Shown: piece by piece, positions 30,513 through 49,960 of the stretch
Layout of the letters: the number at the start of each line of letters is the position of its first letter
Position numbering within the stretch: the stretch's first letter is position 1
Assembly (NCBI GenBank): GCA_964618805.1
Contig: CAZUBM010000012.1
Location: 1 to 64,000, forward strand
Source: an uncultured Nitrososphaerota archaeon
GTDB taxonomy: Archaea; Korarchaeota; Korarchaeia; Korarchaeales; Korarchaeaceae
Length of the DNA: 64,000 nucleotides
Direction: 5' to 3'
Translations under genes and position numbers: made by a program
The notes under the pieces: model-generated
The model's database searches: none
Seen by the model: only the letters and a program-made list of their open reading frames with translations
What the model was told of the DNA's origin: nothing

Positions 30513-30523
30513 TTTTATGCGTT

Positions 30524-30640: not shown

Positions 30641-30863
30641 ATTCAGACACCTTTACCAATCCAACTACCCTGAAAGCAATGCCTTTGGAGTTCAATACTC
30701 CTATTAGCCTGCGAACTCCTGAAAGAGAGTGGAATTCTAAGGAAGCGTAAACTTTCCCTTCATGCAACCAGACTCTGTAAGGCAGATAAGAGCTGAAGTC
30801 CTCGATAAAGCCAGCTATTTCCTCACATTCGATTCCTTCAAACTCAAACCTGACTCTGATCAT
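30633..30863 (-). CDS. Hypothetical protein downstream of Cdc6-like gene
   Basis: Starts immediately after the Cdc6-like stop; GGTGA SD. Confidence 0.6.
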   Translation of the reverse strand: MIRVRFEFEGIECEEIAGFIEDFSSYLPYRVWLHEGKVYASLEFHSLSGVRRLIGVLNSKGIAFRVVGLVKVSEYG

Positions 30864-31805
30864 TTAATCACCTTTAAACTCGTAAATTCTCCATCTCTTG
30901 GCTCCTATGCACCTAACAAGTCCCTTTGCTTTCAAGCTCTGCATGTACTTCCTCACGGACCTAGGAGTCTTAGGGTTCTTGGATTTCCTGTAATAAAGCT
31001 TGTAAAGCTCGGAGCCCTTTACTCTCTTGCGCTCCCTCAAGATCTCCAGAAGGATAAGTTCATCATCGCTTAGCTCTTGATTTTCATCTACGAAGTTGGG
31101 AATGTCCTCGGTGCTTACCTTTTCCCTGTTTTCCATCTCAGCTCTAACTATTGAAGCTCTCAAAAGGCTCAGCGCCATTGTGACATTTCCCTTGCTCCTC
31201 TTAGCAATTTCCATCAGAAGTTCTTGGTCGTAACTCCCATCTCTCAAAGCAAGCCTTGCTCTTTCAGCGAGTATGGAAAATACCTGCTCTGTGGAATAAG
31301 GCTTTATTTCAAATAGGTTCGTTATGTTCATTCTTGCAAATTTTGAAAGCCTGAAATACTCTTTCCTATCTTCAGCCACCAAAACAACGTTTGCGTTCAT
31401 GCTGATGAGCTTATCAACTACGTCTAACTCCTTAACATGCTGGAAATGATCCAAGCAAACAGTTAGTCTGTTAGCCCTTAGATGTCTTCTTAACTTATCA
31501 ATCAAAACAGAATTGGTTTTTGGGATTGTGTTAAGCGGGTTTATCTGACTTAGAATCTCCTTCAGTATAGAGTTAGTGGTTTGAGCCAAAGTTGAATCTA
31601 CGTAGATTAACCTTGATTCCAGCTCCTTTGCGATTGATCTCATCAATATGCTCTTTCCAGAGCCTATTGGACCATAGATAAAGGTGCTAATGCCGTTTTT
31701 TATGAATGAAATGATTCTCTTTCTGTCCTTCTCCCTAAAAACAATGCTTTCTGGCTCGTATGTATGAGAGATTGTTTCTATGTGGGTTATAAGTTTCTTA
31801 ATCAT
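30864..31805 (-). CDS. Divergent Orc1/Cdc6-like AAA+ ATPase with C-terminal wHTH (element-borne)
   Basis: YEPESIVFRE, GPIGSGKS, CLDHFQ (atypical Walker B), PYSTEQVFSILAERA, GNVTMALSLL. Confidence 0.82.
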   Translation of the reverse strand: MIKKLITHIETISHTYEPESIVFREKDRKRIISFIKNGISTFIYGPIGSGKSILMRSIAKELESRLIYVDSTLAQTTNSILKEILSQINPLNTIPKTNSVLIDKLRRHLRANRLTVCLDHFQHVKELDVVDKLISMNANVVLVAEDRKEYFRLSKFARMNITNLFEIKPYSTEQVFSILAERARLALRDGSYDQELLMEIAKRSKGNVTMALSLLRASIVRAEMENREKVSTEDIPNFVDENQELSDDELILLEILRERKRVKGSELYKLYYRKSKNPKTPRSVRKYMQSLKAKGLVRCIGAKRWRIYEFKGD

Positions 31806-31924
31806 GTAGAAGGATAAGTATGAGATAAAATGAGTAGGTTACGCAAACAACGATTTCCATTAGTTCCATTTAAGTCGTGACTCATGATGTGTAGATCTCT
31901 GGTCTCGATCGAGGCTTTTTTGTT

Positions 31925-32671
31925 TTAGTCTCGCATGAGTCCTTCTAATCGTTCTATAACTCTCTTCTTGCCCTCGTCAGTGTAACTTGTGGTGGCAAAT
32001 ATGCCCCTCCAACTATCCAAGAACGTCGTTCTCTTGATTTCTGGTATCACGCTTCTCTTCAGCTTATCCTCAAACACTTTAGGGTTGGGAAGAACTTCTT
32101 TCACCCTTTCCATTACTCCCTCAGGGATACCGTTCTCCAGAACTAAGGAAGCTATGTCCCTTATGTCAGATGCCCTTGAGGAGACAACCTTCATTATGAA
32201 GTAGTCTGCGTAACTTGGAACGAAGAACATCACCTCTTCACCAGCAATCGAGATGAATGCAGACCTGCTCCCTTCAACCATCGCTTCGTCTATCAATATT
32301 ACCTCTTCAGGCTTCCTTCCCCTTATCTCGCCTTCCATGAAGTCCAAAGATACCTTTATCCTGGCTTTATCATAACTGACGTACTTGACCCACCTCATGA
32401 ACCTATAACTCTCGTGCCTTTCCTCAGCCTCTATGCTGTAATCCTCAGGCATGATTAGCCTTATCCTGTCTAAATTCCAACCGTCTTTTTTCCTAACGAT
32501 GAAATCACAGTCTCTGGTGAACCTTGTAAACCGAACAAAGGCCCTTAAAGCGTATCCTCCTATGAGTACAAGCTTAGGGTCCGTGAAGCCTTCTGTACTC
32601 GTTGAAAGCCTCTTGACAGCCGTCAGAAGTTCCTTTTCCCTCTTCTTCATCAGTTCTATAGCTCTAGGCAA
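31925..32671 (-). CDS. AbiEii-like nucleotidyltransferase (type IV TA toxin-like)
   Basis: LIGGYAL..RFTRDCDF, MKVVSSRASDIRDI. Confidence 0.75.
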   Translation of the reverse strand: MPRAIELMKKREKELLTAVKRLSTSTEGFTDPKLVLIGGYALRAFVRFTRFTRDCDFIVRKKDGWNLDRIRLIMPEDYSIEAEERHESYRFMRWVKYVSYDKARIKVSLDFMEGEIRGRKPEEVILIDEAMVEGSRSAFISIAGEEVMFFVPSYADYFIMKVVSSRASDIRDIASLVLENGIPEGVMERVKEVLPNPKVFEDKLKRSVIPEIKRTTFLDSWRGIFATTSYTDEGKKRVIERLEGLMRD

Positions 32672-33372
32672 ATTCTAACACCTTCTCTACGGCTTCTTCT
32701 ACGAGCTCCTTTACATCATCGTTTCTGAAATCCCTATCCCTTACATCGAACAACTTCCTTCCTGACCTCTCGTTGAAGAGTTGACATGCATACCTTATTG
32801 CGCTCCACACCCTAGCATCAGTCCTGGCTATCCTCTTCCACCTTGAAAGCCTCCTAACCTTTTTCAAGGGAGATCTCATCTCTCCTGAAGTAGAGCAATG
32901 CTAAGGCGTCTAAGAAGGACCATTCTGCAACGCAGTTAACCAAGCAGGATTCTGGAGATTCTACGAGCAAACCATCCAACTCTTTGTACTCGTACGGAAC
33001 CCTCTCATGGTACTCCACCTCAAATATCCACTCCCTGCTCCTAGCAAAGCTCTCCAAGGCCTTTTTGTAGGACGATGAGGTTACGGCTAATCGGTAAACG
33101 TTCCTATGAACAAAGTCGTAGTTCCACAAGCTCGCTGCCGTCTGCTTTATTACGACCTTAAACCCCCTATCTTTACTCAAGAAGCTCCAGACGTCTTCCT
33201 CCTTTGCCGGAACGTAGTACCAACCCCAACTCACCCTTTTGACTAATCCAAGCTTGCTGAGCCTGTGCAAGTACTCCTTTGCCCTTGGCTCTATCATAAC
33301 AGCTTCCCTAGTCGCAACCAAGCTTCCTTCCCATTTTTCTCTTAACGCTTCGTTGAACCTAGCGAGATACAT
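32664..33372 (-). pseudogene. AbiEi-like antitoxin/regulator, frameshifted in an A5 run near 32860
   Basis: wHTH LHRLSKLGLVKRVSWGWY; removing one A joins ORFs 32854-33372 and 32664-32879 (LEKVRRLSR). Confidence 0.7.
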
Positions 33373-33375
33373 TGA

Positions 33376-33441
33376 GTCACCTTTAATATGGTATTGGCAC
33401 TTAAGTATTTAAATATGTCACCTTTTTGTTAAAAATGGCAC
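33376..33441. promoter_or_regulatory. Paired operators GTCACCTTT-N10-TGGCAC flanking a TATA-like box
   Basis: Copies at 33376-33400 and 33417-33441, directly upstream of the AbiEi-like start. Confidence 0.6.
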
Positions 33442-33604
33442 ATTTCTTTCCAGAAACTCTGGCCAGTCTTTCTAGTGATTTATCGGATGCTACTCCTTTT
33501 GCCATGAAAGAAATCATCCTAGCATCTTTCTCTAAAAACAATGTGGAGTTTGTTATTTCCATACAGGAGCACATGGTGTAAAGTTAGCTCCAATATGAGA
33601 ATCG

Positions 33605-34510
33605 TTAAAATTCCGTTGCAATGTCCTTGAGGAAAGCGATGAACTTGTCTAAGAAACGCTCGAAGGATTTTGGTGGTCTAACGACGAATAGATCTCTCTC
33701 AAATGGGTCCTCAACAACCTCCCTGGTTAGCCCTAGGGACCTCTTGTTTCTCTCCAAGTTCTCCCTGTACTTCTTGTAGTAAAGAGAAGCTCTTATCTTC
33801 TTGATTATCTCTTCCCTAAATTCCTCAAAATTGAAACCGTTCCTATCTAAGACGAAAACGTCGTAGAAGTCCCTAAGCCTCTGCTTCCTCCTAGTTAATA
33901 TTGCTCTGACTTTCTCACAAAGGATCTCCCTCTCATCATAAGCTTGGACCTCGAATGGAGAGTAGAATTCCAAGAAACCCTTGAAGTATGCTTTCTCATC
34001 CCTTGACAATTTGGCATCGCTCAGCAACGTCATAACTCCAACCTTTTTCACGGGAAAAAGCAGGTCCTCCAAGAAGTTAACTTGTACCTTTATGAGCTCC
34101 GTTCCCTTCCAGAGCTTCATGGTCACCATCCTGCCCCCTCCCCCGAACTCGAAGTACCTCCTTTCGCTGTGATCGTTCTTAAACTCAAGACAAATTTCTT
34201 CGGATATTTTCTCTAACAGAGAGCCGAGGAGGCCTATTTCATCAAGAAGGCTTCTCCTCAATCTCTTCTTTCCCAAGTCCCTCCAAACTTCTGGGTTCTT
34301 CCAGGTGAAATCAAGGTCGACGCTGAACCTGTAGTAACCGAAGTAACACTTGATGAGGCAAGTCCCTCCCTTCAACACGTACTTCCCAGCGGTTTTTGAT
34401 GAAAGCTCTTTTAGCATGCGGTGTATGGTTACTTCCTTCTCTATTAATGCTGACTTCTTTATTCCTGACTTTTCAGATACGAAGCCGATGAACTCAGATA
34501 ACTCGGGCAT
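33605..34510 (-). CDS. AbiEii/DUF1814 nucleotidyltransferase toxin
   Basis: IEKE, VLKGGTCL, RFSVDLDF, EKVRAIL, RDFYD. Confidence 0.9.
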   Translation of the reverse strand: MPELSEFIGFVSEKSGIKKSALIEKEVTIHRMLKELSSKTAGKYVLKGGTCLIKCYFGYYRFSVDLDFTWKNPEVWRDLGKKRLRRSLLDEIGLLGSLLEKISEEICLEFKNDHSERRYFEFGGGGRMVTMKLWKGTELIKVQVNFLEDLLFPVKKVGVMTLLSDAKLSRDEKAYFKGFLEFYSPFEVQAYDEREILCEKVRAILTRRKQRLRDFYDVFVLDRNGFNFEEFREEIIKKIRASLYYKKYRENLERNKRSLGLTREVVEDPFERDLFVVRPPKSFERFLDKFIAFLKDIATEF

Positions 34511-35123
34511 TTTTAATTACCTCCTCAACTGTCTTAGGGTAAAACCTTAGGTAGGCCTTTATCCTGCTTGGGTCAAGCCTTCCCGAGTACTCCTCTACCA
34601 TAGACTCTATCCTCTCTTTTGGAAGGGATCTATACCTTGAGATGTAGACGAAATCCAACAAGGTTTTTTCAGGATCAGAGAACTTAATTACCCCCTTTTC
34701 AACAACCCCAAACCCGAACAAACCCATCTTTAGCTTTAAGAACTTCACTCTTTCTCCAGCTACCTTTATCTCCTTAGGTCTGAATATCGAATCGTTAACG
34801 ACGAATATGACGTCGAAGTGCTCATGGGTTAGGCCGTTAAGCGTTAAAGCTGTGTAAAGACCGAAGTACCACTTAACTTTGAGCTTTTCCATTCCCAAGG
34901 AAAGGATTCTGTAAATGTCCAACGCCTTCTTAAGCTTGAACTCTTCTACGGTCTTGACGTAGTAGAGACCTCTCAGTATTCTTACCAAGTAGCCGTAGGA
35001 TATCATGAAGTTTACGGTTGCCCTGACATCCCTTCCGAACTTTTCGCATGATTTTTCCATCTCAGCTCTTGTTATCACCTTGCCTCCAAAGGTCGATAGC
35101 ACGTATTTCGTTAGAGTTCTCAT
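34494..35123 (-). CDS. AbiEi-family antitoxin
   Basis: GYLVRILRGLYY, YFGLYTAL..GLT, SDPEKTLLD. Confidence 0.86.
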   Translation of the reverse strand: MRTLTKYVLSTFGGKVITRAEMEKSCEKFGRDVRATVNFMISYGYLVRILRGLYYVKTVEEFKLKKALDIYRILSLGMEKLKVKWYFGLYTALTLNGLTHEHFDVIFVVNDSIFRPKEIKVAGERVKFLKLKMGLFGFGVVEKGVIKFSDPEKTLLDFVYISRYRSLPKERIESMVEEYSGRLDPSRIKAYLRFYPKTVEEVIKNARVI

Positions 35124-35124
35124 A

Positions 35125-35181
35125 ATAGTTATTTATATAACTATACTTAAAAATTTTAAAGGTTGTTATATATCTAACTAT
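35125..35181. promoter_or_regulatory. Two palindromic operators (ATAGTTAT-N4-ATAACTAT and a degenerate copy) flanking TATA
   Basis: 35125-35144 and 35162-35181, upstream of abiEi. Confidence 0.68.
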
Positions 35182-35268
35182 CCAAAACTGTGTAGTAAAA
35201 AACCATGGTTTTTACATGAGACTTAAGCAAGTGAATTGGGGCATGATAGTTGTTATCGATGTTCTTAG

Positions 35269-35616
35269 CTATTCTCCACTTGGTCTCATGTTTAAGGCAT
35301 GCTCAGCTCTTAGGTAAGCGTAGTAATTCTTAACATCCTTCTCGACTCCATGCTTGGCAGATTCATCGAGTATCAACCTCATGAAGTCATAATAACCCTT
35401 AACCAACGTCCTGTAGACGCTAACATCAAGCTCTCCCCTAAGTCTAAGCCTCATCGCTTCCCTTTCTATCGCACCTATCTCGTTTTCAAGGGTGAAAAGG
35501 AGGTAGGCGACCTTCTCAACCTCCCTTTTAGAAAGAAAGTCGTTCAACCTTAGCCTTAGGTTGTTCCTCAGCTCGTTTAACTCTTCAAGCGCGTCGTTAA
35601 CGGTGTATTGGGCCAT
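35269..35616 (-). CDS. Helical hypothetical protein
   Basis: ORF from ATG 35616 (MAQYTVNDAL..). Confidence 0.6.
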   Translation of the reverse strand: MAQYTVNDALEELNELRNNLRLRLNDFLSKREVEKVAYLLFTLENEIGAIEREAMRLRLRGELDVSVYRTLVKGYYDFMRLILDESAKHGVEKDVKNYYAYLRAEHALNMRPSGE

Positions 35617-35798
35617 GAAATAGAATTGGATTAAGAGCACAACAGCCTTACGAAAGCGTAAATTTCCGATTCTTCCGATAAGTTTCGAACGCTCAAATTG
35701 TTTTTAATCTAAATCGGAATTACGAGAGACATTAATTATCCACAAAAACGTTTCGCAATAAAATTAAATTTCCGTTTCACCTTCCAATAATTGGATAC

Positions 35799-35981
35799 AT
35801 GTTGAAGAGCCCATCCGTTACTATCGTATCGGTTGTTGGATCGATCGTAGCGATATCTTTGAGCTGGATCTTGAGAGTTTTTCTCAAGATCTCTAGCGAG
35901 CTAGCCGTTGGAATCGCCTGGGTTTGTCTGATCGTTTTAATCTTCAAGCTTCCTGCTAAGGAGAAGGAAAGCAAGAAATAG
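35799..35981 (+). CDS. Small two-TM membrane protein
   Basis: Two hydrophobic segments, basic tail. Confidence 0.55.
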   Translation: MLKSPSVTIVSVVGSIVAISLSWILRVFLKISSELAVGIAWVCLIVLIFKLPAKEKESKK

Positions 35982-36001
35982 AGTGGCTAGGTGAAAGCCT
36001 G

Positions 36002-36355
36002 ATGTCGGAAGAACATCCGACAGCGCAGGAAGAGATTCTCTCGGATTACATCACAATTTCTGTAACCCTCGTTGGCCTAACGCCGGTTATCTACGGTCTT
36101 GGATTGACCGTACTGAGCTTAAAACAGGTTTATCCCGAATTCCTGGCCGATTCCATACACCTAGCTGAGTTGGCCGAGATCTTCTTCATCACGATCCTTG
36201 TTCTTTCCGTTTCTTTGAAGGAAAACGTCTTGGGGAGGTACGCCGGGCGTGCTAGGGAGTCGCTTTTTGTGCTTTTCATAGTTGGAATGATCTGTCTTTT
36301 TCTATCCCTCTTCCTGCTGACCGGGATAGTAAAAATCGTTCTTTCTTCTTTTTAG
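36002..36355 (+). CDS. Membrane protein (~3 TM)
   Basis: Hydrophobic segments; AGGTGA SD. Confidence 0.6.
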   Translation: MSEEHPTAQEEILSDYITISVTLVGLTPVIYGLGLTVLSLKQVYPEFLADSIHLAELAEIFFITILVLSVSLKENVLGRYAGRARESLFVLFIVGMICLFLSLFLLTGIVKIVLSSF

Positions 36356-36672
36356 TCGTTTAACGTTAGCAAATCTCCTATGAAGAAGAGGAGGACCGGA
36401 GAAGCCTCTACAAGCTTAACGAGAACGTGTTTTGTTATCGGTTGACACCAAGGGTAAAGAAATGCCTCCCTAATGTCGGGAGGACCATACCTGGAAAACG
36501 CTAGGTACAACAGCTCCGATGCTGTTATGGAGCCAACGAGCAAGTAACGCCTCAAAGAACTCCATCTGGCTTTGAGCTTCTCGTAGGCACTTTTCTCTAG
36601 TTCTGCCTTGTCAGTTTTAATGCTGTAGTCATCCTTTTGCAAGGAATAACTTCTGTTCTCAAAAAAGCCCAT
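36352..36672 (-). CDS. Hypothetical (membrane-associated) protein
   Basis: 106-aa ORF. Confidence 0.5.
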   Translation of the reverse strand: MGFFENRSYSLQKDDYSIKTDKAELEKSAYEKLKARWSSLRRYLLVGSITASELLYLAFSRYGPPDIREAFLYPWCQPITKHVLVKLVEASPVLLFFIGDLLTLND

Positions 36673-36810
36673 ATTTAGAATTTGTGTCCTAGCTTAAATC
36701 TTTGTTGCGATTCGCACCGTATTAAAGAGAAGCGAGGGGTTTGGGTATAAAGGAATCCCGTTCTTGGATAAAACAAAATTCTCCAATCTACCATCTTTTT
36801 CCCGGTTGAA

Positions 36811-36963
36811 ATGAGGGGTTACTGCCCGAGATGCAAGGAGTACAGGAGCGACGACGGAAGGGACGCTTGGGGAATCGTCTGGATTAACAAAACAGCATTC
36901 TGCGAGAGATGCGGCCATGTCCTAGATTTGTTTGAGGATGTTAAGCATGAAGGAAAAGGTTGA
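36811..36963 (+). CDS. 50-aa zinc-ribbon protein (not in ORF track)
   Basis: MRGYCPRCKEYRSDDGRDAWGIVWINKTAFCERCGHVLDLFEDVKHEGKG; two CxxC. Confidence 0.75.
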   Translation: MRGYCPRCKEYRSDDGRDAWGIVWINKTAFCERCGHVLDLFEDVKHEGKG

Positions 36964-37129
36964 GATTGAAGTTGTAACGCTCAGCTGCGGTCACTCGGTA
37001 AACCCAAACGTAGGCGTGGGTGTATGCTCAAAGTGCGGAAGGCTGTTCTGCGGGAAGTGCCTTCAGATTCTGAAAGACAAATTGCTTTGTCCCTCATGCT
37101 TCAAGGAAGAGGTAGAGCGTGATGGTTGA
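36947..37129 (+). CDS. B-box-like zinc-finger protein
   Basis: SCGH..CSKC..CGKC..CPSC; overlaps neighbours. Confidence 0.75.
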   Translation: MKEKVEIEVVTLSCGHSVNPNVGVGVCSKCGRLFCGKCLQILKDKLLCPSCFKEEVERDG

Positions 37130-37349
37130 GCTTTGGAAGTGCGAGGTTTGCGGCTCAATCGTAAGGAGGGATCAGATAAACGGTAGATGCTACGCTTGCG
37201 GTAGGAGGACATGCGTTAACTGTAGAAGGGTATGCCAGAGATGCCAGCGCGTTTTCTGCATGGATCATATCCAAGTAAGAGAAGTTTGGAGGCAGGGAAA
37301 ACTTGAGAGGATTTTGCTTTGTGAAAACTGCGGCAGGGTATGGGCATGA
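37122..37349 (+). CDS. Cys-rich multi-zinc-finger protein
   Basis: CEVC, CYAC, CVNC, CQRC, CMDH, CENC. Confidence 0.78.
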   Translation: MVELWKCEVCGSIVRRDQINGRCYACGRRTCVNCRRVCQRCQRVFCMDHIQVREVWRQGKLERILLCENCGRVWA

Positions 37350-39112
37350 AGAGATACGTGATATGTCCGGGCTGCGGAAGGTTGGTTAATGCTGAATCGC
37401 ATTTCTGCACGACTCGATCCTGCCACGTTCCCCTTTTCGACTTCTCAAGGGCTCCAAAAGTTAAGACTGAGGGCCTTTTTCTCGGTTACTTCGTTGACAG
37501 ATCAGAATTCCGTTTACCTCTCAACCAGTTGGGTTATCACGTGGCCATCTACGGTGTGACGGGTGTTGGAAAAACAAGGCTTGCGATAAAGCTTGCGATA
37601 GAGGCAGAGAACAATGGGTTGAAACTTCTAATTCTGGATGTAGAAGGAGAGTGGAAGAAAATAATCCCCTTCCTGAAAGCGGAGACGGAGTACTACGAGG
37701 TCGATAGGAACCTTAAGGTTAATCCTTTCGATCTGAATGATAGGGGATTAGCTAAGACCCTTCTTAAAGAAACGATCTTCAAGGGAATAGAGGTTGAGTA
37801 CGCAGAACTATCTCCTCAAATGAACTACGTACTTGAGAAGTGCATAGAAATGAGTTCAAGCATACCGGAGCTAATAGACAACATTCTTTACTTCGAGCCA
37901 GACACCCCATTCAACCTCTCAAACTTGAACAAGACAAAGACTGCTCTTATAGTGAGACTGGATCCCTACAAAGCCAACCCAGCTTTGAACGAGATCTTTT
38001 ATTGCTACTCATCCAACCCCGACTTGAACAAGCTGGACGACAGGAACATAATATTCGATTTGCACAGCTTGGAGGCAAGAGTAGCTTACAGGACCGAGTT
38101 AAGACTTCTTTACAACACTATAGCTATAGCTTACCTAAGGCAAGCTCTGTCGAGGGAAATAACTAATGAGACAAAGCATCTGTTCATAACGGACGAGGCC
38201 CAGCTTTTAGCCCCCAAGATACTGAGGAAACTCGTTGTAACGGATACGTGGACTTCCACAGAGTTTGCAACTAGGTTAAGGAAGAGGGGGGAGTGCATTG
38301 TGTTCATAACCCAGTCACCGAGCAACATAGAGGATGATGTTAGGAGGAACGCACAGAACAACTTTGTATTCAGACTTCAAGATCCTGATGACATAAAACT
38401 GATAGCAGGAATCCTAGGCTGGAACGTTGACACCTCTCTTGAGTATTTGACAACTCATTTGACTAATTTGAAGAGGAAACAAGCTTTGGTTAAGGTCCCT
38501 TTCATTAAGGATCCTTTCCTAATTGAAGTTTCAGACCTTGAGCTCCCGGAATTAAACGAAAGGGAATTGAGGAAGTACGTTAAGTCCATTAAGCACGAGT
38601 TAAACGAATACGAGAGTCTCTTCCTCCAAAGCATCGATTCAAAGCCCTTCTTGCCTGTGGTTGAGAGGAGAAGGTGGTTGGGCATGGACAAGCTGAAATA
38701 CAAGGAAGTTGTTGAAAGACTGGTCAGTGAAGGCATAATAGAGAAGGTAAGCGTTCCTATTGGTAGAGGAAGGCCCATAGTGCTCTATCAGAGGAAAGGA
38801 CAGAAACCGAGCGTTAAGCACGAGTACTACGTTTACTGGTTGATTGACGAGCTAACGGATAAGGGATTAGTGTGTAGGATAGCAAGAATTGGGGAAGCTA
38901 AGCCAGATATACAGATACCAAGCATCAAAACAGCGATAAATGTTGAGTTGGGAAAGTCTGACATCAAGAAGAACATAAAGGAAGCTCTTAAGGAATTTGA
39001 AAGGGTTATAGTTTGTTCTGATGACGAAAAGCTGTTAGAGAAGCTTAAAGAAGAAAACAAGGATGAAAGGATTTTATTTCGCTTGGTTTGGGAAGTTCCA
39101 GGCTTGCTTTAA
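37340..39112 (+). CDS. HerA/FtsK/VirB4-like ATPase with N-terminal Zn ribbon and C-terminal wHTH + PD-(D/E)xK-like domain
   Basis: CPGC..C..C; GVTGVGKT; ITDEAQ; LRKRG (Arg finger); ITQSP; KHEYY..KPDIQI..AINVELG. Confidence 0.82.
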   Translation: MGMKRYVICPGCGRLVNAESHFCTTRSCHVPLFDFSRAPKVKTEGLFLGYFVDRSEFRLPLNQLGYHVAIYGVTGVGKTRLAIKLAIEAENNGLKLLILDVEGEWKKIIPFLKAETEYYEVDRNLKVNPFDLNDRGLAKTLLKETIFKGIEVEYAELSPQMNYVLEKCIEMSSSIPELIDNILYFEPDTPFNLSNLNKTKTALIVRLDPYKANPALNEIFYCYSSNPDLNKLDDRNIIFDLHSLEARVAYRTELRLLYNTIAIAYLRQALSREITNETKHLFITDEAQLLAPKILRKLVVTDTWTSTEFATRLRKRGECIVFITQSPSNIEDDVRRNAQNNFVFRLQDPDDIKLIAGILGWNVDTSLEYLTTHLTNLKRKQALVKVPFIKDPFLIEVSDLELPELNERELRKYVKSIKHELNEYESLFLQSIDSKPFLPVVERRRWLGMDKLKYKEVVERLVSEGIIEKVSVPIGRGRPIVLYQRKGQKPSVKHEYYVYWLIDELTDKGLVCRIARIGEAKPDIQIPSIKTAINVELGKSDIKKNIKEALKEFERVIVCSDDEKLLEKLKEENKDERILFRLVWEVPGLL

Positions 39113-39148
39113 TTGATGAAAATTAATGCCGCTTTTTTGATTTTCTGA

Positions 39149-39202
39149 AAAGGGAAGGAAAGACAGAGATGAACACAAACTAATGCTACTTTCCTTCCCT
39201 TT
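39149..39202. repeat. 14-bp perfect inverted repeat between convergent genes (terminator or cis site)
   Basis: AAAGGGAAGGAAAG-N26-CTTTCCTTCCCTTT. Confidence 0.6.
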
Positions 39203-39360
39203 GGTAGCTAGTTGGAGAATCCTTTGAGTTGTTAGTTAAACACCTAAAGCTTATCCATGGGTAGCACTATTTTATCTCTATGAAAAGCTCGTACTGCGCT
39301 TCTGGCTGAGTTTTTGTCGATGAAACTAGTTAATTGATGTAGCATTGCCTTATGGAAAGA

Positions 39361-39903
39361 TCAATGACACCCTACCGATTTCACAGTCTCCTCTAGTTGC
39401 CTAAGCCTTTGCTCAAAACCTACGTCGGACATCATGGTAGAAAACGAAAAAAGTCTGTTAGTTTTATCGCAGATCCACGTTACATCAACAAGAAGCATAC
39501 TACCTTCTGCTGGACCTATCCTCACTACAGTCACTTTGGCATCGTGTCCGTTAATTTTCATAGAGTATGCCTTAACAAGCTCATAACTGCCTCCAGATGT
39601 TTCGTTTATTAGTTGTAAACGGAGGTTTACTATTTTTTCTAAATCTCTCGTACCGTAGGTTAATTCGGCAGATTCTAAAGGCATATAAGTTAGCATAGAG
39701 CTCAGATTAGCTCCCTTGAAGGAAACAGTCCATCCTTCTTCAGGATTACCCAAACTTTCAGTCATATTCCATCCTTCAGGAATTTCTACACTTACGCTGC
39801 CGGGCAATTCCTCTTTCATCACTTTACGTGTAGAGTAGTAATACATTGCAACGGAAAATAGAGTGATCAAAACAATAAAACATAAAAACAATTTCTTAAT
39901 CAA
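39361..39903 (-). CDS. Membrane-anchored protein, PsbP/DcrB-like fold possible
   Basis: N-terminal TM; VEIPEGW, KINGHDA. Confidence 0.6.
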   Translation of the reverse strand: MIKKLFLCFIVLITLFSVAMYYYSTRKVMKEELPGSVSVEIPEGWNMTESLGNPEEGWTVSFKGANLSSMLTYMPLESAELTYGTRDLEKIVNLRLQLINETSGGSYELVKAYSMKINGHDAKVTVVRIGPAEGSMLLVDVTWICDKTNRLFSFSTMMSDVGFEQRLRQLEETVKSVGCH

Positions 39904-39946
39904 TCGTACACCTCCTTAATTATTTTTGAATGTAAATAGATAAAAA

Positions 39947-42900
39947 TTATGGATCTGGGGCAAAGCTATGATAGTAGTCAGTCCTATCGGTGAAATCTGA
40001 GGCAAGAGCAGAGATCATAGTTTTAGCTTCCTTATACTCACCCATGCCGGGGTCTTCGAATTCATAAGGGGCATCAAACTTACCGTTCGTTGGATCTGCA
40101 TGTATCCAATTTCCTTTTATGTATACCTCAGCAAAATCATGTCCACGTTCTTCTTCTATTCCATAGCTGAAGAAAACAGATGAGACGAAGCGAGCTTTTA
40201 TACCAACAGCTCTGCACATCCCAACGAAAAGAATAGCGTAGTCGGTGCAATCACCTAGAACATTTCCGTAGCCTTCCTCTTTAATCTGTTTCCATAACAT
40301 ATAGAAATAAGTAGGCTGTCTGCTGGAAGAAGAGTTGTCATATTTAATCGCTCCCTGTACCCAGTTGCAAATTTCCCTGGCAAGTTCGTACTTATCTCTT
40401 ATATCCCTCCATCTTGTCTCTACAAAGGTCTTGACCTCGTTTCTTAGCTTGTTATTAATTTTCAAACACAACACACATGACTCGAGTTGTATATTATATA
40501 GAAATTGTATAGCACCCCAATCTATCTGAAGACGACGAAGACTTTCGTGGTTGTACACGCTAATCGTCCTGGTTTCCTCAGCCGTATCTCCAGCAGAGGT
40601 ATTAACCTTTACGCGATATTGAACTTTTATCTCGCTGGGCAATTTTCTTTGGATGATATCACCTATCTCAACAGTAAATACGAATTCTGGAGCGGTAACT
40701 CCTTCTATGCTCTTGGTAGAAGGTGATCCCTTTACAGTAATATTGCTAGTATCAAAAAGAAGTTCGACAGTCATTCTATTGCTAGGATGATTTTTAGCCA
40801 AGGAAACAATCACTTTCACACGAAACGAAGTCCACTCTTCGTAGAACTTAGTCCTATCGAAAAAGACGCCGATTCTTTTGATTTCAGCTTCTGGTTTAGG
40901 TTTCTTCTCCTCCACAATTAACGTGACAGTAATAGTCCTTTCTTTCCCCCCGCTCTCCCCCCTTATGGTAAGCATGTAAGTTCCCTTAGGAGTTTCCTTA
41001 CTCGTCGTTATCGTCAGCTTCGAGCTGAAGCTTGGTTCACCAGATTCTGGGTTAAAGAAATAGGTTGTGCCAGGAGGCAATCCAGTAACGCTTAGATGAA
41101 CGGTTTTAGGAGTACCGCTTTCCAGCCTCGCTTGAACATCGTAACTCGCGCTTCCCCCTTGCTCCACCTTTTGGCTTGGTGGGCTCGCTGAAAGGCTGAA
41201 ATCGAATATCAGCTTTAGAACCAATGTTATCTCCTTTGTCTCCCCAGCTTCTATGTCAAACTCCTCTTCTCCCTCGTAAGGATATCTTACTGCCTTAACC
41301 TTATGATGTCCAGGAGCTACGTGAAGAGTCATCCAACCATCCTCAGTATCTCCCTTCTCAACCCCATCCAGGTATATCCTAGCAGTCTTTATCGTCGTTC
41401 CCTTCTCATCAACGACGTGGACGTGCACTATCCCTACGTTAGCCTTCACCTCTATCTTAACCGAAGAGCTCCAATCGGATTCCGCTCCATCATCATCCTT
41501 CACCTTCACCTTCGCGTAATAATTTCCAGGCTCTGAGTAAGAGTGCGAGACCGAGCTTTGGGAGGTCCATCCAGACGTATGCCCGTCACCAAAATCGAAG
41601 TAATAGCTTACAACTTGACCGTCTGGATCGTAGCTCGATGAGGCATCGAAGTTAACTTGCTCATTAACGTTAACAGAAGTAGGCCAGGCCTCTAGGATTG
41701 CTACTGGAGGCTCGTTAGCTTGCAAAACTTCCACATAACAGGAGTCGAGCACCTGTCCTTCAGGACCAATCAAGTGGAATATCCTGTAGCCTGCAGGCTC
41801 TCTCATATATTGTTCGGTCCTATATGTTGTGCCTGGTTTAGGAGCCTGGAACATATCGAGCAGCTTCCAAGTTCCGTTCGGGAACTCACTGTAAATCTTT
41901 ATGTATGCCGCCGAGGAGCTTACTTCGAAGTATATTTTTACGAGTTCTCCCACCTCAAAGGAACCGCCATCTTGATTAGGACCTTGTCCTCCCTTGTTAG
42001 TCCAGATGTCTCCGGTAAGCTCTTCCTCTTCGATCAGCTTAACGTATCCATCGTATTTATGATCCCTTGAGTAAATCCAAGCGCAAACAGCGTACTCCCC
42101 ACAATCGTACTCGTAATGCTTTGCGTAAACCTCGACCTTATCCCCTTTATGCAAAGGCCAATGGACATCGCACTCTGAGACGTAATCAGCTATATCAATA
42201 TGGGCAAGGTCACCAGCATCCAGCTTACCTTTGGGATCTGAAAGAACCTCGTCTATCCTCACAATCACATCGTACTGATTTGGAGGCTCTTCTTGAATAG
42301 TTCCCCTGAATTTCACGAAGTTCAGGGCAGAAACCGTAACGGTTATGGACTTAGTAGTTGAGAGCCCATCGCTTTGGTAAGAGGTAACGGTTATCGTGTA
42401 GGTCCCAGCTTCTGCGTAAGTGTGGCTTGCTGGGAACCAGTGGTCCTCCTCATGGCCATCCCCCCAATCCCAGTGTAACCTGATTATAGAGGCTCCTGGG
42501 GTTCCTGGGGTAGTTACCCCGTTGACGGTAACTGTAAGACCATCTATCTCCGGCTCATACAACGTAAGGCTTGGAGGTTGGCCTGCTGCCGTAACCTCTA
42601 CGTAACAGGAATCAAGGATCTCATCTCCTGGACCAACCAGATGGAATATCCTGTAGCCAGACGGTTCTCCCATTACCCCAGGGATCTGGTAAGTTGTGCC
42701 TGGCTCAGCCTGGCCCTCGCCCAGAAGCTTCCAAGTTCCGTTTGGGAACTCATCGTAAACCTTGACGTATGCTGCTGAACTTACTTCAAAGTATATCTTT
42801 ATGGCCTCTCCTACCTGAAAAGAGCCTCCATCCTGATTATACCCTTGGCCTCCCTTGTTAGTCCATATATCTCCAGATAGCTCCTTGACTAAGATGTTGA

Positions 42901-43774
42901 GATCATACTCCTTGGTGGCTGTACAGGATTCTTCAGGTGATTCGCACAGACAGCATGTTCCGCCAGGCGGGGTATGGCCTATACATCCAGACACAGTTAT
43001 CCTGAGGGTTACTAGTCCGGGCTTTAAAGCCTCCAGTGAGCCACAATATTCCGCGCCCATTTCTTCTCCAGGTGGAAGTTCTTGCGGCGGGGTTCCGCAA
43101 AATAATGGATGCGCTTTTAAGCTATCTCCCGGAGACCACTCAATGTAGAAATCGAGGTGCGGGCTTATGCATACTGAGCTCGAGCCAACATTCCTCACCC
43201 CAACTCCTATTCTAAATTCGTCTCCGACCCGCACTGGATAAGGCTCAATATACACATCCGTTATCTCTAATTTACATTCGTGTCTCTGTTCAACCACGTT
43301 TATCTTTATCGATTTTATGTCGTCCTGAACCCACTCTCCATCTTTCCAGTAGAAAGCGTGTATGTTTAGCTGCCAAGTTTTCGGCTCTGGTGGAGCAGTC
43401 AATGTGAATGAATATGTTTTTTGATCCTTTCCAGAGAGGACATCCGTACTATAAGCTAGCAAGGGGCCTGCGTGCTCATAAACCTGAATCATGACATCGG
43501 TCGATGCCGTGAAGGAGTAGTCAACGATTACATCTATGCTAAAAGACTGGTCTACATAGACCTCTGTTGGATAATCAACGTTAACTATCTTTATTCGCAT
43601 CTCCTCGCCAGCACCGCTAAACCAAAGGATCCAGGGGGATGGAAAAGAGCCTACAGGGTAGTCTTCTAAGCTCTCTTGGAATGTAGTTCTCTCAGGATTT
43701 GTAAAAACAAAAGCAGGAGCAATTGTGTAGGAAAACGAGATCAAAAACAAAAGGAAGGAAAGGAGCTTTCGCAA
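39947..43774 (-). CDS. Secreted multidomain surface protein: Ig/PKD and PEGA domains, C-terminal transglutaminase-like domain
   Basis: Signal peptide; WDWGDG and FDFGDG PKD motifs; duplicated GDIWTNKGGQG domain; GDCTDYA..GHDFAEV..ADPT triad. Confidence 0.85.
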   Translation of the reverse strand: MRKLLSFLLFLISFSYTIAPAFVFTNPERTTFQESLEDYPVGSFPSPWILWFSGAGEEMRIKIVNVDYPTEVYVDQSFSIDVIVDYSFTASTDVMIQVYEHAGPLLAYSTDVLSGKDQKTYSFTLTAPPEPKTWQLNIHAFYWKDGEWVQDDIKSIKINVVEQRHECKLEITDVYIEPYPVRVGDEFRIGVGVRNVGSSSVCISPHLDFYIEWSPGDSLKAHPLFCGTPPQELPPGEEMGAEYCGSLEALKPGLVTLRITVSGCIGHTPPGGTCCLCESPEESCTATKEYDLNILVKELSGDIWTNKGGQGYNQDGGSFQVGEAIKIYFEVSSAAYVKVYDEFPNGTWKLLGEGQAEPGTTYQIPGVMGEPSGYRIFHLVGPGDEILDSCYVEVTAAGQPPSLTLYEPEIDGLTVTVNGVTTPGTPGASIIRLHWDWGDGHEEDHWFPASHTYAEAGTYTITVTSYQSDGLSTTKSITVTVSALNFVKFRGTIQEEPPNQYDVIVRIDEVLSDPKGKLDAGDLAHIDIADYVSECDVHWPLHKGDKVEVYAKHYEYDCGEYAVCAWIYSRDHKYDGYVKLIEEEELTGDIWTNKGGQGPNQDGGSFEVGELVKIYFEVSSSAAYIKIYSEFPNGTWKLLDMFQAPKPGTTYRTEQYMREPAGYRIFHLIGPEGQVLDSCYVEVLQANEPPVAILEAWPTSVNVNEQVNFDASSSYDPDGQVVSYYFDFGDGHTSGWTSQSSVSHSYSEPGNYYAKVKVKDDDGAESDWSSSVKIEVKANVGIVHVHVVDEKGTTIKTARIYLDGVEKGDTEDGWMTLHVAPGHHKVKAVRYPYEGEEEFDIEAGETKEITLVLKLIFDFSLSASPPSQKVEQGGSASYDVQARLESGTPKTVHLSVTGLPPGTTYFFNPESGEPSFSSKLTITTSKETPKGTYMLTIRGESGGKERTITVTLIVEEKKPKPEAEIKRIGVFFDRTKFYEEWTSFRVKVIVSLAKNHPSNRMTVELLFDTSNITVKGSPSTKSIEGVTAPEFVFTVEIGDIIQRKLPSEIKVQYRVKVNTSAGDTAEETRTISVYNHESLRRLQIDWGAIQFLYNIQLESCVLCLKINNKLRNEVKTFVETRWRDIRDKYELAREICNWVQGAIKYDNSSSSRQPTYFYMLWKQIKEEGYGNVLGDCTDYAILFVGMCRAVGIKARFVSSVFFSYGIEEERGHDFAEVYIKGNWIHADPTNGKFDAPYEFEDPGMGEYKEAKTMISALASDFTDRTDYYHSFAPDP

Positions 43775-43888
43775 CCTTACCTTTAGTGTATCAAATTGAA
43801 TTTATTATAAAACTTCCGTTCTAGCTGCGCGCGGTTGAATGATAGAAAAAGAAGCATAAACTCTACTAATGTAAAGAGTTGAAATTTC

Positions 43889-46243
43889 TCACCTGAAAAT
43901 CGACGTTATAGGAGCTATAATTGCCTTAAACAACTTAGACAAAAACTGAGTTATGCCTTCAGCTTCCTTCACAACGAAGAAAGTGGCCATTCCTTCCCTC
44001 AGTTTTATTTCACTACTATGTATCGTTGGCATTGCCCAAAGCGTCATTTTTCCAGTTATTATTCCTTCAGGCATCTCGCAATAAGCTACTATTTTAACGT
44101 AACCGTTGTAAGCCTCCACCTCTGTGTTCTTTACCATTTTCTCTTCCCATCGATTACACTTGTTACCGTTCATCACCTTTCCCATCGTCAGCTCTTCCTT
44201 GCAAACGCATTCCAGGGTTTGGGCATCGCAGCTACAAGCTCTCCTTCCAGCGTATGGCAATTCAAAAACAATGCCATCGAAGCACGAATCCCAATCCTCT
44301 ATTAGCACGTTGCCAAAAGAATCCATCAGCTTTAAATCGTAGCTAACTTTCTTGCCAATAACGAAGCGTGAATCGTTGAAAGAAATAACGACGGTTACTA
44401 TGTCCCCTGGCATCAAGTTCTCATCAGGAATCATGTCAACCAGAGTAGGACAATCCTGCAAGCAGTTCTCTTGAGTCTCGCCATATTCGAACTCACACTT
44501 ACCGTTGGGGTTAGGACATGCTGGAATTGTTGTAGTTGTCGACGTCGTTGAGCTCGTGGTAGTCGAGGTTGTAGAAGTAGTGGTACTAGTCGTAGTACTA
44601 CCAGTTACTTTACAATTTGAGTCACAATCACTGTATCTATAATCCTTACAAGCGCATTCGATGTCGTAATCGACTAAACCAAGTTCACACAGGTTAACGA
44701 ACCCAGCAGAGTTAGCGTTTGGGTTATCAGGATCACAAAGATAGCAATCCAGAGCATCGTTTGGACAGTGGTAACAACAGTCACCGTCACCACATCCAGA
44801 ATCTGTTATGTGCTTTTCGCAAGCCACATCATGGAAACCAACTTCTCCTTTGTTCAAACAAACGTCCCAAAAGCTAGAGTAGCAAGCTGAGCAGGAACTC
44901 CAAGTACAGTCTGATTGGCAAGTTTGGATACCGCACCCATTAGCGCATGACTGGGTTGAACCAGGCGGGTCACACTCTTCTCCAGGGTCTACAACACCGT
45001 TTCCGCAAGACAGACAACCAGGATCGTCATCATCCGTAAGTCCGTCGCAGTCGTTGTCCTTGCCATCGTCGCAGTTGTTGTTCGCCACCGATTCGTCTAC
45101 GTTGTAACCCCCGCAGGAGCAAGAGCAATCTGAACAATCGTCGCTTGACCATATATAACAGTTACCGTTGTAACAGTAGTATTCTCTGTAATAGTCGCCG
45201 TAGCATCCATCAGCGTCGCTACAATCGTAAATATCACTCCAAAGAGACCATTCTAGACAATCATCGGCGTCATAATCTCCACAGGTACGTTTTTGGATTA
45301 CAGTACCGTAGCACCTGCGCTCTACTCGTCCTTGAGGAGAGCATTCGTCAGTACAGGAGATGCTCGTTGTCGAACCGGGTATAGTTGTTGTAGAAGTAGT
45401 GCTTATGGTTGTCGAACTCGTAGTTGATGTAGTGGTTGAAGTTGTCGTGCTCGTAGTGCTTGTTGTAGTAGTCGTTTTCTTCTTAGTAGTCGTAGTCTGA
45501 GGTTTTGTAGTCGTTGTAGAAGATGTACTTGGAGAACAGTAACAAGCACCAGCCGTCGTCGAACAGTAGCACTTATTGTTAATACACTTCAAATAACGAT
45601 AATTGCTACCGTACTGAAGACAATCGCAGGAGTTGTACTTACTGCAACAATCAGAATCTTTTATGCATTCTTTCCCAGGTGGGAGGGAAGTAGTTGATGT
45701 TTCTTCTTCACAGCTCGGGTCAGGATCGCATTTAAACTGTCCATCGTTGGGATTACAGCCAGGAGGATTACAAACGTACACTTTTTTCATCTCATCGTTT
45801 GCGCAAGGCGAAACTCCGCATCCCTTCTCTTCCCAGTTACAAACACATTCACCAGGTGGTTTACATGTATTATCCTTACACTTATAACCTTCAGGACAAT
45901 CTTTGTTAGTACAGCACTCTACTACTTTGTAATTGCATCTCCATCCACTGGATGTACAAGAAGCAGTTCCGTCGAACTTCCTCGGTTCTCCTCCCATAGT
46001 TATACATCTATCGGTACAAGTTGGTTTAGTATCTAGTTCATCGTATCCACAGAACCACCCGGCACATAGTCCATGGTAGAAATAAGCACAACCTTGAGGA
46101 GAGTAAAAACATAAATTACCACTCTCATAAGTAGGAGGACAGTTACCACATTCTATACCACTACAAAACACTCCGGCCGATACAAAGGGTGTGGAGAGAA
46201 GTACGTACAATAACAACACCATAAACGTAAACTTTCTAAACAT
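43889..46243 (-). CDS. Secreted Cys-rich, Thr-rich surface glycoprotein
   Basis: Signal peptide, dozens of Cys, poly-Thr/Ser linkers, CDDGKDNDCDGLTD and CGNGVVDPGEECD motifs. Confidence 0.82.
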   Translation of the reverse strand: MFRKFTFMVLLLYVLLSTPFVSAGVFCSGIECGNCPPTYESGNLCFYSPQGCAYFYHGLCAGWFCGYDELDTKPTCTDRCITMGGEPRKFDGTASCTSSGWRCNYKVVECCTNKDCPEGYKCKDNTCKPPGECVCNWEEKGCGVSPCANDEMKKVYVCNPPGCNPNDGQFKCDPDPSCEEETSTTSLPPGKECIKDSDCCSKYNSCDCLQYGSNYRYLKCINNKCYCSTTAGACYCSPSTSSTTTTKPQTTTTKKKTTTTTSTTSTTTSTTTSTTSSTTISTTSTTTIPGSTTSISCTDECSPQGRVERRCYGTVIQKRTCGDYDADDCLEWSLWSDIYDCSDADGCYGDYYREYYCYNGNCYIWSSDDCSDCSCSCGGYNVDESVANNNCDDGKDNDCDGLTDDDDPGCLSCGNGVVDPGEECDPPGSTQSCANGCGIQTCQSDCTWSSCSACYSSFWDVCLNKGEVGFHDVACEKHITDSGCGDGDCCYHCPNDALDCYLCDPDNPNANSAGFVNLCELGLVDYDIECACKDYRYSDCDSNCKVTGSTTTSTTTSTTSTTTSSTTSTTTTIPACPNPNGKCEFEYGETQENCLQDCPTLVDMIPDENLMPGDIVTVVISFNDSRFVIGKKVSYDLKLMDSFGNVLIEDWDSCFDGIVFELPYAGRRACSCDAQTLECVCKEELTMGKVMNGNKCNRWEEKMVKNTEVEAYNGYVKIVAYCEMPEGIITGKMTLWAMPTIHSSEIKLREGMATFFVVKEAEGITQFLSKLFKAIIAPITSIFR

Positions 46244-46874: not shown

Positions 46875-46905
46875 AAATTAATTTTAGCTTCCTTTAAGTA
46901 AAAAT

Positions 46906-49894: not shown

Positions 49895-49960
49895 GTTAGC
49901 AGAAATTCGGAGGATTGCTATAATTAAAAGCTTTTAAAAACCGAAATTAAAATAGAGAGC

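Follow-up and report, generated by a model that had tools for sequence, protein, structure and literature searches.

DNA import in Sulfolobus requires the ATPase CedD, and some CedD orthologues are without a transmembrane domain (PMC11823120). In Streptomyces, according to the available portion of PMC12857230, the FtsK-like coupling protein TraB moves double-stranded DNA without a type IV secretion system (T4SS) and binds clt repeats, and the relaxases of the MOBC class are related to PD-(D/E)XK enzymes. The plasmids of the pT26-2 family carry a core HerA/VirB4-like ATPase for which a part in DNA transfer is proposed in the accessible sections of PMC6972569. HerA-like ATPases are common in archaeal 'dark matter' islands, and the HerA-like helicases of arCOG00280 in these islands are annotated as 'possible viral DNA pumping ATPase' (PMC4158269, in extract). 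Among thaumarchaeal integrated elements the Zn-ribbon proteins of arCOG08677 form the fifth most common arCOG; the survey of these elements assigns no signature genes to those it calls 'cryptic integrated elements', and it detected no relaxase (PMC6563490). This report concerns a four-gene operon, zf1-zf2-zf3-ATPase, of an uncultured Nitrososphaerota archaeon (genome G000 below; GenBank assembly GCA_964618805.1). The operon lies in the 64,000-nt stretch of DNA that was analysed, called the window here (contig CAZUBM010000012.1, positions 1 to 64,000 of the forward strand; contig C12 below). It encodes three small zinc-finger proteins followed by an ATPase in which an N-terminal Zn ribbon, a motor of the FtsK-HerA type and a wHTH (winged helix-turn-helix) are fused, as had been proposed in the original prediction, which was made from the letters of the DNA alone.

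The same genes recur in the same order in distant archaea, where a tyrosine integrase and an Orc1/Cdc6-like protein are their most frequent neighbours. We tentatively favour the reading that the operon serves an undescribed family of integrative, plasmid-like elements as a backbone module for DNA translocation and DNA processing. The hosts of such a family would be Nitrososphaerota, Bathyarchaeia and neighbouring archaea, and its other recurrent backbone genes would be the integrase and Orc1/Cdc6.

The four genes were found on the + strand in overlapping frames, just as originally described (Table 1). For zf2 the ATG start was preferred over the upstream TTG. By direct reading of the sequence, zf1 and zf2 overlap by 17 nt and zf2 and zf3 by 8 nt, while the stop codon of zf3 and the second ATG of the ATPase gene share the letters ATGA. 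The latter start gives the 588-aa form of the ATPase, the same as in the protein-database entry. A TATAAA motif is present at 36746-36751, 60 nt 5' of zf1. This layout fits a single operon whose genes are presumably translationally coupled.

Table 1. Features of the operon and of its island in the window, followed by recurrent neighbours of the operon. Occurrence is given for the 21 loci whose open reading frames (ORFs) were clustered, namely the window, the second locus of the same genome (contig C35) and 19 public loci. REase, restriction endonuclease.
Feature	Position	Strand	Occurrence	Remarks
zf1	36811..36963	+		50 aa; predicted single Zn ribbon (CxxC...CxxC); ORF call and homologues
zf2	36947..37129	+		60 aa (65 from TTG 36932); predicted two-Zn finger, C-x-H...C-x2-C-x4-C-x2-C...C-x2-C
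zf3	37122..37349	+		75 aa; predicted three-Zn finger; alternative GTG start 37119
ATPase	37346..39112	+		588 aa (590 from ATG 37340); Zn ribbon, FtsK-HerA-superfamily P-loop, wHTH, REase-like domain
ATPase, N-terminal Zn ribbon	37364..37423	+		C9, C12, C23, C28; 30-sequence alignment
ATPase, P-loop ATPase domain	37472..38539	+		aa ~45-400; conserved motifs, structure matches
ATPase, winged helix-turn-helix	38606..38794	+		aa ~423-485
ATPase, C-terminal domain	38813..39109	+		alpha-beta-beta-beta-alpha-beta; invariant H494, D523, E536, S540; REase-like, unproven
Island holding the operon, ~28 kb	27792..55925			tblastx against same-genus genome G002 (contig C4)
c8 of the window	35269..35640	-		123-aa helical protein, no Pfam family; inverted here, homologues 5' of finger genes elsewhere
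Orc1/Cdc6-like AAA+ of the window	30864..31805	-		probable replication initiator of the element; Pfam AAA_22, Cdc6_lid
Possible integrase C-terminus remnant	30309..30512	+		weak; tblastn with C35 integrase
Orc1/Cdc6-like protein			11/21	
Tyrosine integrase with C-terminal Zn ribbon			10/21	C35 included
c4	e.g. L017 9851-10144		9/21	~100-aa protein 3' of ATPase
c6			6/21	~100-150-aa protein
c8			5/21	helical ~120-aa protein 5' of zf1
N6/N4 DNA methylase cluster			5/21	
AbiEii			5/21	

Public loci were obtained by a scan of one genome per species, which gave 19 loci with relatives of the ATPase. Their hosts were metagenome-assembled genomes (MAGs) labelled Thaumarchaeota/Nitrososphaerota, Nitrosotenuis, Nitrosotalea, Nitrosopumilales, Bathyarchaeia, Aenigmatarchaeota and Thermoproteota. 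Finger genes were sought in these loci with phmmer, the six finger proteins being the queries and all ORFs of the six reading frames the targets. Matches were obtained to zf3 in 16 of the 19 loci, to zf2 in 15 and to zf1 in 12; they always stood 5' of the ATPase, shared its strand and kept the same gene order. Where both a long ATPase frame and upstream DNA were available, zf2 and zf3 were present without exception (15/15) and zf1 in 12/15. The three loci with no finger match were L028, which has no upstream DNA, L032, a partial match on a 2.4-kb contig, and L033, with a partial ATPase match only; in L034, zf3 was found 1.7 kb 5' of a partial ATPase match.

A second locus in G000, on contig C35, carries zf1 (47 aa), an extra ORF, zf2 (62 aa), zf3 (75 aa) and a 595-aa ATPase on one strand, the ATPase being 46-49% identical to that of the window. 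No terminal overlap was found in C35, and thus no sign of circularity. Together with the public loci it shows the fingers accompanying the ATPase across genomes, the co-occurrence on which the original prediction had staked its reading. A third and decayed copy (contig C7 of G000, 58513-60838) consists of a truncated c8 and intact zf1 and zf2, with neither zf3 nor the ATPase. Its nucleotide identity to the window (89.6%) stops exactly at the zf2 stop codon, and its zf1 and zf2 proteins are 92-96% identical to those of the window; these fingers may act in trans or alone.

Among 41 genomes of the window's relatives, close homologues of the ATPase were found only in G000 (100% and 49% identity). 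In the other 40 genomes the best match was 22-35% identical, often over a short stretch, in 33, and there was none in 7. Close homologues do occur in distant MAGs. No relative was found among the known plasmids of PLSDB. With its patchy distribution, multiple copies and decay, the family is therefore like mobile elements. In the window the operon stands within an island of about 28 kb, a location confirmed by its absence from the same site of a same-genus genome, G002. Synteny with G002 by tblastx covers window positions 20716-27791 and resumes at 55926-59761 at adjacent G002 positions, and because the two flanks meet there the intervening ~28 kb were taken as the island.

In alignments of the finger proteins the ligands C5, C8, C31 and C34 of zf1 were all invariant (13 homologues), as were C14, H16, C27, C30, C35, C38, C48 and C51 of zf2 (16 sequences), and zf3 had 11 invariant Cys and one H/C/D position (15 sequences). 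From these ligand counts zf1, zf2 and zf3 would hold one, two and three Zn sites, respectively. Comparison with the C7 copy gave ratios of nonsynonymous to synonymous substitution (dN/dS) of 0.03 for zf1 and 0.06 for zf2. Homologues in the same order, invariant Cys and low dN/dS therefore mark these small ORFs as real genes, beyond chance. None of the three belongs to a curated family: Pfam matches to RING, B-box, IBR, rubredoxin and Zn-ribbon models were all sub-threshold, NCBIfam and PHROGs gave zero matches, and PADLOC gave only one weak match, to zf1 (E 0.072). The best Pfam scores of zf2 and zf3 were 21.6 bits for zf-RING_5 (cut-off 27.9) and 18.3 bits for ANCHR-like_BBOX (cut-off 27), which places them outside the RING and B-box families. 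The label 'B-box-like' given to them earlier has behind it only RING, B-box and IBR matches that stay below their curated cut-offs; the ligand count would fit a two-Zn cross-brace. A weak relatedness between zf2 and zf3 was seen with hhalign (probability 73.5%). Nineteen zf3 homologues were found in the protein collection, each a stand-alone protein (74-93 aa) that lacks both a Pfam family and an informative name. A TFIIB Zn ribbon was rejected as an identity for zf1 (hhalign probability 12.9% against the chromosomal TFIIB-like protein).

The motor domain of the ATPase was examined in an alignment of 30 homologues. In the N-terminal Zn ribbon C23 and C28 were invariant, and C9 and C12 were kept in at least 90% of the sequences. 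Walker A (G72, T74, G75, K78), Walker B (E286 of D285/E286), R314-K315-R316 and Q325 were invariant or nearly so, which bears out the intact Walker motifs, arginine finger and glutamine sensor first read from the single sequence. Pfam DUF87, the HerA central domain, matched at 50.7 bits (cut-off 23.2, E 3.2e-13); together with the intact Walker motifs and arginine finger, this makes the protein a member of the FtsK-HerA superfamily. The Pfam Zot model also matched above its cut-off and TrwB_AAD_bind just below. In NCBIfam the best model was CedD, with 66.7 bits over residues 63-397, the whole ATPase domain, against a cut-off of 600; VirB4 (TIGR00929) was second with 37.8 bits against 643, and HerA models scored 24-29 bits against cut-offs of 800-850, so that the protein is not a HerA equivalog. 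The C35 paralogue gave the same ranking, CedD and then VirB4. An AlphaFold2 model (mean predicted local distance difference test score, pLDDT, 87) was compared with solved structures using Foldseek, and the target-normalised TM-scores were 0.72 for VirB4 (4ag5), 0.68 for DndH-C, 0.57-0.58 for TrwB and 0.50 for HerA, the match to VirB4 being confined to the VirB4 C-terminal domain (0.72). Only about 60 residues, a Zn ribbon and two short strands, precede Walker A, and the HAS barrel of HerA proper is therefore missing. NurA was absent among the scanned neighbours. The original call of a HerA/FtsK motor thus stands at the level of the superfamily and not for HerA proper, the nearest models being CedD, VirB4 and TrwB. 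The ATPase is therefore a soluble member of the HerA/VirB4/VirD4 branch that falls outside every curated family.

Homologues of the ATPase numbered at least 213 proteins at E<=0.001 among 8000 candidates scored. Among 120 homologues listed, identity was 46-100% and nearly all were full length; those that carry a name are entered as 'DUF87 domain-containing', 'ATP-binding protein', 'predicted/MarR transcriptional regulator', 'EcfA2' or 'hypothetical'.

Residues 405-590 were modelled with confidence (pLDDT 91) when folded with 17 homologous segments. The three-helix bundle and beta hairpin of the first part match solved wHTH proteins, and a wHTH after the ATPase domain, as first proposed, can be accepted. 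The last ~100 residues were modelled as helix, three consecutive strands, helix, strand, helix and strand, a predicted topology that fits the core order of the REase-like fold and not a flavodoxin-like one. H494 opens the first helix, D523 immediately precedes the second strand and E536 immediately follows the third. Around E536 most sequences read V-E-L-G-(K/N/S/T/R)-S; in the C35 clade the motif is E-V-E-Y-K-S, with the canonical E-Y-K. Foldseek returned nothing at E<=1e-3 for the C-terminus, YaeQ and FokI appearing in the noise zone at 3e-3 to 1e-2. Pfam searches with the 17 C-terminal segments gave sub-threshold matches to UPF0102, MTES_1575 and PDDEXK_6, each in 1/17, and no relaxase family. 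In the Atlas the nearest named clusters were AHJR-like, PDDEXK_11, PDDEXK_3 and Replic_Relax, with weak scores of 0.80-0.82. The model is that of a probable REase-like domain with a putative D/E metal-binding pair.

The wHTH and REase-like domains form a module that is shared with other proteins: in predicted structures it also makes up the C-terminus of further ATPases, of the DUF87, VirB4, TraG-P-loop and 'archaeal TraC-like' kinds, and that of ResIII helicases. Used as a profile, the module matched 896 cluster representatives at E<=1e-3, of which 194 were at E<=1e-10. In a sample of 25 of the 896, all six of the 651-827-aa proteins with any Pfam match carried DUF87, TrwB_AAD_bind, P-loop_TraG or Zot signatures, and none of eight stand-alone proteins of 217-252 aa had a Pfam family above cut-off, one giving a sub-threshold AHJR-like match. 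A 654-aa distant homologue of the ATPase, on contig C43 of G000 (L014), has the same architecture from end to end at 25% identity, with H, PD and VEL aligned. The same contig (positions 1-9814) also encodes a LexA-like S24 repressor, HTH_3 and HTH_17 proteins and a Rep-like HTH_36/Phage_rep_O protein, and represents either a different type of mobile element or a bacterial-type contaminant contig.

The usual gene order in the clustered loci was Orc1/Cdc6, integrase, (c8), zf1, zf2, zf3, ATPase, c4 and c6, with c8 directly before zf1 in L017, L018 and L020. Orc1/Cdc6 and the integrase keep fixed positions, while the cargo, AbiE and methylases included, varies between loci. The pairwise identities calculated for the ATPase correlated with those of Orc1/Cdc6 (Mantel r 0.78, n=10) and of the integrase (Mantel r 0.49, n=10), correlations that host relatedness confounds. 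Four of five c4 members tested matched DUF2958 at 17-20 bits (cut-off 21); c4 is absent from the window. Between zf1 and zf2 insertions were found of a methylase (L016, 2033-2827), a TFIIB-repeat protein (L018, 6895-7611) and a winged-helix-like ORF (C35, which is L013, 5844-6212), and in some loci an MCM-winged-helix AAA+ ORF lies just 5' of the finger genes. TFIIB homologues are recorded on conjugative elements in the available sections of a survey of thaumarchaeal integrated elements (PMC6563490). A tRNA adjoining the element was absent in 15/16 loci.

A backbone function is suggested for the operon because its association with the integrase and Orc1/Cdc6 is fixed while the defence cargo changes. 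The ATPase would form a ring that pumps double-stranded element DNA; the winged helix would select that DNA and the adjoining REase-like domain would nick or cut it, so that a single polypeptide might serve as both coupling protein and DNA-processing enzyme. The three zinc-finger proteins may bind the motor as small accessory subunits or adaptors. Element DNA would in this way be moved out of, into or between cells, probably through host or helper membrane machinery. A role in transfer is favoured because both halves of the ATPase are nearest to DNA-transfer ATPases (CedD, VirB4, TrwB and TraG-P-loop), and because of three precedents, namely CedD, TraB together with the MOBC relaxases, and the pT26-2 ATPase.

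Each precedent is like the window system in some respects and unlike it in others. CedD of the Ced import system of Sulfolobales and VirD4-type coupling proteins such as TrwB are handlers of transferred DNA, and they provide the best curated match (CedD) and the structural matches (TrwB/VirB4). The window ATPase differs in its score far under the CedD cut-off, its lack of a transmembrane anchor and of ced, ted or T4SS neighbours, and its added N-terminal Zn ribbon, C-terminal wHTH and REase-like domain and three finger partner genes; a separate, chromosomal CedD-like gene with two transmembrane segments (151.8 bits) exists in the same genome. TraB of Streptomyces plasmids and actinomycete integrative and conjugative elements is likewise a single FtsK-like motor with a C-terminal wHTH on small integrative elements, with a backbone of integrase, replication initiator, motor and small accessory proteins in the portion of PMC12857230 available. 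In contrast to TraB, the window ATPase has no FtsK_SpoIIIE Pfam match, membrane association or clt-like repeats, has an extra nuclease-like domain, and is archaeal. The MOBC relaxases (TraX of pAD1 and MobC of CloDF13) join a DNA-binding domain to a PD-(D/E)XK-related catalytic domain for conjugation, in the same portion of PMC12857230, and the resemblance to them is architectural only, as the Pfam searches above returned no relaxase. The pT26-2 family offers a conserved core ATPase of archaeal integrative plasmids proposed for DNA transfer, a likeness drawn from its description in the accessible sections of PMC6972569; its core encodes many membrane proteins, of which none is conserved here, and its hosts are Thermococcales and Methanococcales.

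The chromosomal CedD-like ATPase of G000 is the counterpart of the weak ATPase matches described above, a correspondence based on matches that does not imply orthology across the relatives. On contig C5 of G000 (L015, 4641-7293) a TFIIB-like Zn-ribbon protein (269 aa) lies directly 5' of this CedD-like ATPase (620 aa), and the pair may be part of a host DNA-exchange system.

A number of observations count against the role in element transfer. The ATPase has no transmembrane segment in a hydropathy scan, nor have 22 of the 23 frames of its cluster, the single match being at the N-terminus of one ORF call. All curated transfer-ATPase models fall far under cut-off, and the top Foldseek rows by E-value are HerA proteins (4d2i at 5e-15, with Sir2-HerA, DUF4297-HerA and HerA-NurA among them). 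Across the 21 loci the operon has no conserved neighbour that encodes a membrane pore, a pilus or another T4SS, Ced or Ted component. Direct repeats of >=22 nt that could represent att sites were found neither flanking eight loci (within 8 kb) nor inside the island, direct repeats >12 nt were absent from the island edges, and a search for a clt-like repeat array in non-coding DNA around the operon gave only chance-level short pairs. Contig C12 has no integrase (PF00589) match, and the operon is intact all the same. Of the two features of an integrative element, integrase and edge repeats, the window copy shows neither while the family shows the integrase; without integrase and flanking repeats, the window copy looks immobilised. 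The C-terminal domain is not established as a nuclease in fold or activity: of the H..PD..NxE signature first proposed, the invariant H494, D523 and E536 hold, whereas the fold scores lie within the noise zone and conservation does not extend to the lysine of the canonical (D/E)xK, the x-K position being L537-G538 and K539 varying (K/N/S/T/R). The intact operon of the window, which has no integrase, and the purifying selection that keeps zf1-zf2 in the C7 remnant would both fit a function of benefit to the host as well. The context is also rich in defence genes, with methylases in or beside 7/21 loci when L016 and C35 are counted and an AbiEi/AbiEii pair that separates zf3 from the ATPase in L024, L026 and L027. 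In PADLOC the ATPase domain matched mad8 at 2.3e-16, with no other mad gene among the nine proteins scanned.

Several of these observations would suit a defence or exclusion module, which we consider rather unlikely. In such a module the ATPase-nuclease, with zinc fingers as sensors, would be cargo or have an addiction or exclusion function and would cut invading DNA, as in HerA-Sir2, HerA-DUF4297 and MAD7-MAD8, and a DNA methylase, sometimes nearby, would protect self DNA. Besides the mad8 match, several PADLOC HerA defence models match the ATPase at 1e-5 to 1e-10, Foldseek finds Sir2-HerA and DUF4297-HerA complexes at E ~1e-11 to 1e-13, and MAD7/MAD8 are described as an ATPase-nuclease module in the available part of PMC13662399. 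HerA and its defence complexes (HerA-NurA, Sir2-HerA, DUF4297-HerA, MAD7-MAD8) share DUF87 and the pairing of an ATPase with a nuclease, genes of the AbiE, HEPN-MNT and restriction-modification types lie around the operon, and the operon has stayed intact in an island without integrase. On the other side, the nuclease-like domain here is fused and not a separate subunit, the HAS barrel of HerA proper is missing, and none of the partners of named systems (mad1-7, Sir2, DUF4297, NurA) was found; the eight-gene mad1-mad8 operon of MADS, with its methylase, kinase and nucleases, has no equivalent. Methylases are missing from most loci, the window included, and it is the integrase and Orc1/Cdc6 that are fixed in adjacency while known defence genes vary, AbiE to the point of standing inside the operon in three loci. 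PADLOC gave single-gene matches to the ATPase only and NCBIfam none above cut-off, in agreement with the earlier statement that no named system could be recognised. The original prediction had left the role as 'mobilisation or defence'; linkage to the integrase and Orc1/Cdc6 favours a backbone role in a mobile element and does not settle the choice.

An enzyme of replication or maintenance is an unlikely explanation. It would be a helicase or translocase acting with Orc1/Cdc6 at the origin, or an FtsK-like motor directing the XerC/D-type integrase in multimer resolution, excision or segregation. A motor with a C-terminal wHTH recalls the gamma domain of FtsK, which works with XerCD. Tight linkage and correlated divergence with Orc1/Cdc6 and the integrase are in keeping with this explanation, as are the Rep-like HTH_36/Phage_rep_O protein adjoining the C43 homologue and the MCM-winged-helix ORF just 5' of the fingers in some loci. 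Against it, no archaeal replicon is known with a replication helicase of the HerA/VirB4 class, the nearest models are transfer ATPases and not helicases, and a nuclease-like domain and three zinc-finger partners would be unexpected. Elements with Orc1 or MCM are, moreover, presumed to recruit the host replisome in the available sections of PMC6563490.

The backbone reading has a bolder form, which is doubtful: the ATPase may be a fused coupling protein and relaxase-equivalent, with a CedD/VirD4-like motor, its own winged helix, a PD-(D/E)xK-type nickase and zinc-finger adaptors, which together would recognise and process element DNA and feed it into a host DNA-exchange channel. A genome-packaging enzyme of a virus, with an FtsK-HerA-type packaging ATPase and a module for site recognition and cutting as a terminase analogue in proviruses with unrecognised capsid genes, is very improbable, since the terminase logic of ATPase plus nuclease, the Zot match, a match to the PHROGs 'terminase large subunit' phrog_2666 (3.7e-10 over 58 residues) and the arCOG00280 annotation cited at the outset are opposed by the lack of any relative among 50,697 phage and archaeal-virus records (INPHARED) or in IMG/VR, on which ground a viral origin was rejected, and by the 21 loci, in which no capsid-like or other virion gene is conserved and the recurrent neighbours are only the integrase, Orc1/Cdc6 and a few small proteins.

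The island of the window also holds a HepT/MNT pair, the divergent Orc1/Cdc6, two AbiE-like pairs, the inverted c8, large secreted proteins, methyltransferases, a CbiA/ParA-like protein and a radical S-adenosylmethionine gene, and it may combine the remains of a decayed element with other variable genes. The Orc1/Cdc6 is only 23-30% identical to the copies of other loci. The match to the C35 integrase (30420-30488) is 23 aa long with 56% identity and E 0.004. On the left side of the island an MntA-like nucleotidyltransferase and a HepT-like RNase form a type VII toxin-antitoxin pair (28648-29255). Two AbiEi/AbiEii-like toxin-antitoxin pairs follow at 31925-33372 and 33605-35123; the first is divergent, with an 86%-identical DNA copy on contig C11, and the second matches PADLOC AbiEi at 2e-86 and AbiEii at 9e-99. 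Just 3' of the operon, on the - strand (39947-46243), are genes for two very large secreted proteins, neither conserved in the other loci. One (1275 aa) has PKD domains, internal repeats of ~860 nt and a C-terminal transglutaminase core, and the other (784 aa) is Cys- and Thr-rich and of no family. ARAGORN called a 90-nt tRNA-Ile(tat) at 29600-29689 (-) inside a protein-like 206-aa ORF on the + strand (29443-30063); the call may be false, or the sequence may be an att-type remnant.

The proteins of the operon are already in databases under generic names; the module itself is conserved but uncharacterised and would define a family of archaeal integrative elements. No description of the four-gene module was found by full-text literature searches or by looking up terms in PMC6563490 and PMC4158269, a search to which the supplementary annotations of PMC6563490, which may list members, were external. 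Little is understood of the mobile elements of Nitrososphaerota, comprising the ammonia oxidisers and their relatives, and of Bathyarchaeia, abundant though these archaea are. For one family of cryptic integrated elements the operon, with more than 200 homologues of its ATPase, is a candidate both for a signature and for a machine that handles DNA. As one ATPase and three proteins of 50-75 aa, it also offers a compact, soluble test system for the question of how archaeal elements move or protect their DNA. Were defence its function, it would be a new fused ATPase-nuclease system with zinc-finger partners. Were the ATPase a coupling protein fused to a relaxase-equivalent, it would be the first candidate DNA-processing enzyme of archaeal conjugation-like transfer, for which no relaxase has been found, and would mark out a class of mobilisable elements that is widespread among ammonia-oxidising archaea and their relatives.

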